From: Eledone cirrhosa
Lineage: Eukaryota
Length of the DNA: 64,000 nt
NCBI GenBank assembly: GCA_964016885.1
Contig: OZ024756.1
Coordinates: 22,258,001 to 22,322,000, forward strand
Direction of reading: 5' to 3'
The notes under the pieces are model-generated. The model was not told the origin of the DNA, ran no database searches, and saw only the letters and a program-made list of their open reading frames with translations. A program made the position numbers and the translations under genes. This document shows positions 60,671 through 61,033 of this stretch, one piece after another. How positions within the stretch are numbered: position 1 is the stretch's first letter; each line of letters starts with the position of its first letter.

Positions 60671-61033
60671 ATTAGAAAGTGAGGTTTTTTTTACAAAATG
60701 AAAAATAACCGAGGTGTCCTACACGAGTGGAAGTATAAAGAAAAAGGGATGAAATCGAAAATGCAACTGAAGTCTTGAAGGTGAGTTGAGATGGAGGGTC
60801 TGTGGTTTTTCTCACATCTGATGTGAGAAAAACCACAGACCCTCCATCTCAACTCACCTTTTGAAAAGCAGAAGAACTGCGAAACCGGTAAAGGAACCAA
60901 ATAAATATATATATTTAAAAAAAAAATAAGACTTCAGTTGCATTTTCGATTTCATCCCTTTTTCTTTATACTTCCACTCGTGTAGGACACCTCGGTTATT
61001 TTTCATTTTGTAAAAAAAACCTCACTTTCTAAT
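60671..61033 (+). mobile_element. Nested double-palindrome element in (TA)n
   Basis: Outer arms 60671-60776 and 60928-61033; inner arms 60778-60818 and 60820-60860. A diverged single arm occurs at about 45285-45385. Confidence 0.85.
60857..60894 (+). ncRNA. Minimal type I hammerhead ribozyme, U3-A8 variant
   Basis: CCUU-UUGAAAA-GCAG aagaa CUGC-GAA-ACCGGU-A/AAGG, followed by AATAAA at about 60900. Confidence 0.7.

Follow-up and report, generated by a model that had tools for sequence, protein, structure and literature searches.

A head-to-head Penelope-like insertion in Eledone cirrhosa and possible genomic traces of priming and hammerhead cleavage in its family

The window analyzed here, a stretch of 64,000 nucleotides from Eledone cirrhosa, contains at 60671-61033 a long palindrome that carries a hammerhead ribozyme motif (HHR) on one arm only. 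How did two such unequal arms arise, and is the ribozyme active in the cell? Both questions were approached through the sequence of the locus and of its relatives, with genome copy counts made by pattern searches. The explanation that we consider probable overall is a promoterless insertion of two fragments of a Penelope-like element (PLE), made from two cDNAs on one RNA, plus a one-off deletion of 67 nt. The window copy itself is most likely inert, a dead by-product of a known kind of element.

The palindrome and its parent element

The nested perfect palindrome described in the first-pass annotation was borne out: the outer arms (60671-60776 and 60928-61033) are exact reverse complements (106/106), the inner arms (60778-60818 and 60820-60860) are complementary at 41/41 positions, and single extra bases are present at 60777 (G) and at the centre (T60819). 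The predicted fold of its RNA, a check proposed with that annotation, is very stable (-263.7 kcal/mol; z = -38 against 100 shuffles). The ribozyme had been described as looped out, which holds for an unpaired stretch of 67 nt (60861-60927) but not for the 5' strand of stem I (60857-60860), which sits within the inner arm, so that the window ribozyme is only partly looped out. The young age proposed for the insertion agrees with the identity of its arms and with the match of the right arm to copy L120. The window copy is doubly unusual, having two long arms and having lost 67 nt from one of them. Its parts are as follows, with family positions numbered from the long 3' end (0 = 61031).

60671..61033, unstranded: whole head-to-head (fold-back) insertion of two 3'-terminal PLE fragments within a run of (TA)n (natural full-length copy as BLAST reference)
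60673..60776, - strand: distal part of the inverted arm (family -104..0), which has the long end too
60777..60777, - strand: deletion junction, at which 67 nt (HHR core, AATAAA, AT hairpin and TnAm tract) are replaced by one base; unique in the genome
60778..60820, - strand: proximal part of the inverted arm (family -214..-172), overlapping the sense arm by 1 nt; the centre junction is also found in other copies
60820..61031, + strand: intact sense arm, from the presumed transcription start (family -212) to the long 3' end (211/211 identical to L120)
60857..60894, + strand: type I minimal hammerhead with U3-A8 core, palindromic stem III and predicted cut after A60890 (motif; sister-family covariation; cut-site copies and U6 fusions)
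60900..60905, + strand: AATAAA, candidate poly(A) signal of the pseudo-LTR (sequence; local duplications end here)
60914..60926, + strand: T3A10 tract, a hypervariable boundary in the family
60967..60970, + strand: internal TATA, the short-end site of the family (-61) and likely a second site of priming from the (TA)n target (independent contigs have loose ends at 60970 and 60734)
60971..61031, + strand: 61-nt "tail", which pairs normally have on a single arm and this copy has on both (mirror at 60673-60733)

Contigs of four runs contained the short-end junction and the fold joint on 60891; the window's own junction was not separately shown in them. A MITE (DNA transposon) was rejected as an identity for the insertion, as centre junctions vary between copies, the termini are asymmetric and the sequence is the end of a reverse transcriptase (RT) element.

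The U3-A8 hammerhead anatomy claimed earlier was found in full, with the 3-8 pair, GAAA, the UH and stems I to III all present. Stem I is formed by 60857-60860 and 60891-60894, the core from U3 to A9 occupies 60861-60867, stem II consists of 60868-60871 and 60877-60880, GAAA lies at 60881-60884, stem III is palindromic, and A17 is base 60890. This motif was the sole match of a descriptor scan over both strands of the window. Rfam models returned no hammerhead among 85 matches at E≤10 for 60780-60940; over the whole window, the 150 of its 255 matches that were listed showed noise from hairpins and microsatellites. In the isolated motif, stem I is predicted to form with a probability of ∼0.65, compared with 0.0 in the whole window transcript, in which its CCUU pairs with the left arm at 0.91-1.0. 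Minimum free energy prediction also allowed U3 to pair with A17; this would extend stem I and inhibit cleavage.

Exact copies of a 40-mer of the HHR numbered 5,887 in the 3.0-Gb assembly, and 10,187 arms genome-wide bear both flanking anchors at normal spacing. The parent element encodes an RT with a C-terminal GIY-YIG domain (PF00078, E 5e-07, and PF01541, E 7.6e-05, in a 770-aa frame), and many parent copies have RT frames of 775 aa; in protein P0001 the linker between the two domains reads C-X4-C-X2-C. A separate ORF1 of 400 aa overlaps the 775-codon RT frame. At one locus (L232:3880-7316) the overlap is 88 nt long and falls at a T TTT TTA heptamer, which we take to belong to a class of candidate -1 frameshift motifs; the ORF1 of this locus matched no Pfam family. 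The overlap layout is preserved in 8 of 16 loci. At the 16 loci, which were picked for intact frames, partial tandems with a unit of 4,689 bp were found. Within the pseudo-LTR the HHR is in sense orientation, ∼175 nt ahead of the end, and insertions of the family are flanked by (TA)n. The search for a parent PLE proposed by the first-pass annotation thus recovered an RT with GIY-YIG, partial tandems whose pseudo-LTR carries the HHR, an inverted 5'-truncated copy and a tail at one end. The parent is a young EN+ PLE, putatively of the Neptune/Nematis type, which it matches as described in the available text of PMC8557442; 734 homologues were found, which carry no clade labels. Similarity across 97 standard-length arms was considered as a sign of selection and rejected, since conservation reflects youth. 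Elsewhere in the window, 45280-45404 (- strand) is an old relic, 76% identical to the 3' end of the family.

Could the window copy make a rod-like, viroid-like RNA that cleaves itself at 60890 and may circularize or replicate, as the earlier reading implied? The fold is very stable, the HHR motif is intact on one arm, and PLE-related retrozymes produce circular RNAs according to the available part of 10.64898/2026.07.22.740005. We nevertheless regard such an RNA as highly improbable. The window copy begins at the presumed start site and hence lacks a promoter as well as the TATA box; there is a single sense HHR and no tandem unit; stem I has zero probability in the rod; and the deletion junction is single-copy, so that this copy has not propagated. 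Neither a non-LTR retrozyme nor a viroid-like circular RNA was retained as a class: the arms are inverted instead of forming tandem units, and one sense HHR with a unique junction does not provide the two cuts of a unit-length circle.

Arm ends, paired arms and the deletion

Among 263 distinct arms, a sample that takes in loci selected by size or deletion, the 3' end was at 0 in 135 and at -61 in 93. Both sites are TATA/UA motifs that match the (TA)n target and lie before ORF1. Head-to-head pairs are common in the family, the short ones running to thousands, usually with the HHR on both arms, and in ∼98% of pairs a long arm is combined with a short one, with ends 61 nt apart. In one size class we counted 718 long-plus-short matches, of which at most 28 are double counts of 14 long/long loci (∼690 pairs); the long/long pairing of the window copy is thus rare (14 loci versus ∼690 long/short).

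At the opposite side, 29 of 60 arms had 5' ends at -214..-205, with 4 ends in the adjoining 30 nt upstream and 12 beyond that; the 60 arms came from 30 loci and from 21 stretches that were mostly unpaired hits, none chosen by size. A TATAAAA box precedes -213 by 30 nt, and CCAAT and an E2F-like motif lie upstream. Genome-wide, 389 copies join the A/T flank at -214, compared with 35 one base higher, and 503 copies start at -211. In 27 of the first 100 copies a G replaces the genomic C at -214, as a copied cap would give. A sister PLE family, with ∼65% nucleotide identity to the window family in the ORF, has the same promoter layout and the same 5' edge, located 32 nt past its TATA-like box and present in 162 copies, with G in 9 and C in 91 of the first 100. 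The cap signature is therefore only partial, as C and not G is present in 73/100 edge copies (91/100 in the sister family). Taken together, these edges suggest that -213 is the transcription start; the alternative that the 5' edge is a splice acceptor was discarded, since no upstream exon is attached.

Between the two ends, the lengths of the T and A runs in the TnAm tract added up to 13 in 76 of 110 arms, with 2 to 10 T, never fewer than 3 A and a correlation of -0.94. T3A10 and T10A3 are reverse complements of each other, and the variation of the tract could reflect template switching or an assembly artefact.

A mechanism that would account for these structures begins with a dimeric RT-endonuclease that likely cuts the (TA)n target. 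Two cDNAs would be primed within the 5' end of one uncleaved RNA, both would run off at the transcription start, and their ends would then be joined head-to-head; in the window copy, a single deletion event, likely a polymerase jump, would have removed 67 nt with the hammerhead from one arm. In the available text on PAc (Poseidon of Anolis; PMC11167929), two internal start sites of the RT define the tail, and the enzyme, predicted to be dimeric, extends both target strands, which provides a mechanism for paired cDNAs.

The arms of a pair are closely related. Subfamily-diagnostic sites were concordant between them in 74/76 and 73/76 pairs, and 22 rare variants were common to both arms, with 146 private. 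Concordant arms fit one template but also agree with snap-back (fold-back) copying, the mechanism of the first-pass annotation, in which a cDNA primed at the long end reaches the RNA 5' end and copies itself, the second pass having skipped the hammerhead region. It resembles the self-priming put forward by Arkhipova et al. 2013, and palindromic junctions are read as self-priming in the consulted part of PMC3846280. Besides these junctions and the common variants, it would account for the same deletion on both arms at one locus (C4:199147634/760), for identical U6 junctions on both arms of L332, L318 and L305, and for the location of 5 of 8 large deletions in the short arm. We still consider it an unlikely origin. 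In 8 of 62 pairs the upstream end of the short arm lies beyond that of the long arm by more than 15 nt, and in 5 the long arm exceeds the short one; 6 of 37 parsed deletions lie in the long arm and have an intact short partner. In 46 of 55 pairs, among them 17 of the 19 whose arms are otherwise identical, the two arms carry different TnAm tracts, with no direction (mean T 5.2 versus 5.0). Solo copies have the same 5' edge, so a hairpin is unnecessary for it. The ORF, moreover, can sit on either arm. We therefore favour an origin in which both arms would represent independent passes over one RNA.

The missing 67 nt had been attributed to second-strand synthesis that skipped the ribozyme. A genome-wide search showed that the window junction is single-copy. 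Between the same anchors, 8 deletions of at least 49 nt, each with its own junction, and 57 of ∼19-48 nt were found, a total of 65 compared with 10,187 intact arms. Of 38 examined (the 8 large ones and the first 30 smaller ones), 37 were parsed. On the left, 22 of the 37 end at -177..-166, where the HHR starts, compared with 10.6 expected (P about 5e-5 if placement is uniform and microhomology is left aside). Right ends are scattered, and long and short arms are affected alike. Such skipping may have taken place: given the cluster, the rarity, the scatter and the involvement of both arm types, a structure-linked polymerase jump is plausible, though as an infrequent event and not as a programmed one. 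We also considered whether conservation of total length could tie the double tail to the deletion, and rejected this, as five other large deletions lie in short arms.

Loss after insertion, by break repair or replication slippage in the 214-bp perfect palindrome and independent of RNA structure, is somewhat unlikely. It would fit the 1-nt insertion at the window junction, the microhomology or templated inserts at other large deletions (L052, L054 and L059), the scattered right breakpoints, and the 2 deletions of at least 32 nt that a search of a control stretch returned, a number that has no matched denominator. The clustered left breakpoints argue against it, as do the otherwise identical arms, which leave little time for a later loss. 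A deletion during insertion, of the structure-linked kind, therefore seems to be the better reading of the window junction.

Copies that begin at the predicted hammerhead cut

The cut predicted after 60890 found support at the level of the family. Copies that start at this position after six A/T bases numbered 86, compared with 6 and 8 for A-starting controls 16 and 9 nt upstream. The TA ahead of the cut provides target microhomology for 50 of the 86; the other 36 have no TA microhomology, versus 3 and 6 in the controls (counted from listings). An inverted partner accompanies 31 of the 86 copies, 12 are local duplications and 2 are U6 fusions, and the remaining 41 are solo or of other kinds. 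Of the 31 partner arms, 24 also have no sequence above the cut (-143) and 7 reach above it. In independent contigs, the fold joint likewise falls on 60891. Several cut-site 5' ends (L185, L189; L181, L182, L197, L200/L201) are joined to sense ORF fragments or to other copies; one ORF fragment ends in an A run and the other copies end just after AATAAA, as if the RT had jumped, or the RNA had been ligated, to RNA 3' ends.

The U6 fusions are few but base-exact. L332 carries a full U6 (RF00026, 111.6 bits) on one arm and the last 42 nt of U6 on the other, both joined to the first base 3' of the cut, and L350 is a second, independent U6 insertion joined at the predicted cut. A genome-wide pattern covering ∼60 junction positions returned only 3 U6 junctions (2 insertions), all on the cut; these counts are very small. 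In the sister family, U6 is joined at the predicted cut in 2 insertions. Among 33 U6 ends with loci, all fusions to the two families fall on the cut except L392, in which U6 is fused to a more diverged relative and the junction is not exactly placeable. At its gathering score, Rfam missed the partial U6 pieces in L290 and L291.

The sister family (3' ends in L261 and L269; 6,212 copies) has a hammerhead with U3-A8 and in addition A13C: GAAA is changed to GCAA in 98 of the first 100 copies. The core from U3 to A9 and the stem III palindrome are kept, and stems I and II differ by compensatory changes. To our knowledge, position A13 of the hammerhead is invariant, which makes the change unexpected and counts against cleavage. 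Because of A13C the strict descriptor missed this motif, which was found by eye. The sister family has 17 cut-site copies; the control search for them caught loop point mutants and is hence void.

Hammerhead cleavage leaves a 5'-OH end. According to the accessible part of PMC6789731, RtcB joins the 2',3'-cyclic phosphate of U6 to 5'-OH ends. In vivo, the hammerhead would cut a minority of transcripts, leaving a 5'-OH joinable to U6 by RtcB, and the cut-site copies and U6 fusions suggest that the ribozyme likely does cleave inside the cell. A host nuclease, or an RT that stalls at stem I and then jumps template, could instead have produced the accumulation at GUA and the U6 fusions without catalysis. 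The same U6 fusions in the A13C family and the predicted U3-A17 pairing would agree with this, as would two published points: the HHR of PAc is inactive without protein and gave no reads ending at its cut, in the available text of PMC11167929, and template switching is possible for snRNA chimeras, in that of PMC6789731. A non-catalytic origin nonetheless appears rather improbable to us. The junctions are base-exact, at a position predicted beforehand, in two families with different downstream sequence; stalling at stem I would stop the RT 4 nt further 3'; and between the families stems I and II change in a compensatory way around an unaltered U3..A9 core and stem III palindrome. Template jumping to U6 may have occurred, but it too requires an RNA end at the cut base. 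Cleavage of a minority of transcripts therefore remains our preferred reading of these junctions.

Other repeats of the genome showed related arrangements. A third, more frequent fold-back family in (TA)n, with the same long/short architecture, occupies window positions 59226-59393, 59686-59850 and 59893-60068 and also occurs near 2245, 26390, 47323, 50965, 55184, 57659 and 63962. U6 is fused to it at GUC^GGGG in three insertions (L305, on both arms, L316 and L391). GAAAC and a long stem III-like hairpin are present, and no CUGANGA core was found upstream of the GUC site in 48 contexts. U6 is also repeatedly fused, at near-fixed positions, to two other repeat families (L309, L310, L317, L325, L326, L329, L333 and L334), which are possibly further self-cleavage or processing sites. 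A tandem array of U6-like 3' ends with ∼1.8-kb spacing lies at C19 ∼31.78-31.84 Mb (L390). Within the window, 7349-8362 and 41850-44353 are tandem arrays (units of ∼102 bp and 10 bp by translation) with long spurious open frames.

Read jointly, and with slight confidence in favour, these observations would make the genome an archive of how PLEs replicate. Its paired "strong-stop" cDNAs, thousands in number, would mark where transcription starts and the two places of priming in a pseudo-LTR with an LTR-like U3-R-U5 layout, and the U6 fusions would show that atypical minimal hammerheads of the U3-A8 and U3-A8/A13C types cut their RNA in vivo and supply ends for ligation by RtcB. Ribozyme cut sites in any animal genome, including the GUC site of the third family, could then be sought through U6 chimeras. 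The family bears on the role of PLE hammerheads and on the origin of inverted structures and tails. Its fixed arm ends, long/short pairing and base-exact U6 fusions make specific predictions for in vitro target-primed reverse transcription, for which intact ORFs are present in the family. If the A13C core cleaves, hammerhead search descriptors would widen.

Comparison with known systems

In the main-text literature searched, with subscription papers mostly outside it, such evidence for PLE priming and in vivo hammerhead cleavage is apparently unreported, although supplements of PMC4209133 and PMC8557442 may list similar families. The role of the PLE hammerhead is called unclear in the available text of PMC8557442. 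With the EN+ PLEs of the Neptune/Nematis type in that text (Arkhipova 2006, as cited there), the present family shares the RT with C-terminal GIY-YIG, a CX2-5CxxC linker, partial tandems with a pseudo-LTR carrying an HHR, inverted 5'-truncated copies, a tail at one end and (TA)n targets. It differs from the PLEs described there in its tail (61 nt, compared with 30-40), in its separate 400-aa ORF1 overlapping the RT ORF (a frameshifted ORF1 is mentioned in the legend of Fig. 1 of the same source), and in the very many copies reduced to the segment from start site to tail. Its TATA-type promoter contrasts with TATA-less Penelope of D. virilis, as described in the consulted part of PMC2377424.

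The metazoan minimal type I HHRs of PLEs in the accessible portion of PMC4209133, including the U3-A8 motif of Schistosoma Cercyon, likewise have the U3-A8 covariation, G10.1-C11.1, a short stem I and a tiny palindromic stem III that implies dimers, and pairs of motifs on opposite strands, 100-700 bp apart, are already reported there. Here, unlike in those motifs, no bulged base is present between 9 and 10.1, stem II has 4 bp, the sister family adds A13C, and the cut position has genomic evidence. Non-LTR retrozymes and viroid-like circular RNAs share with the window copy a short, non-coding, PLE-derived sequence with a type I HHR, but the window copy is head-to-head and not tandem, with one sense HHR, a unique junction and no sign of independent spread.

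As far as PAc is covered by the available sections of PMC11167929, two RT starts bounding the tail, an AT-rich target and uncleaved RNA as the main template are shared, whereas here both starts are UA motifs that match the target and lie before ORF1, and insertions starting at the HHR cut are present, a position at which no PAc RNA reads ended. The U6/LINE chimeric pseudogenes attributed to RtcB ligation in the consulted text of PMC6789731 similarly combine a U6 3' end with a 5'-truncated retroelement and were retrotransposed; in the present family, U6 is joined to a PLE and at one fixed position, the ribozyme cut, whereas in those chimeras the junction is variable.
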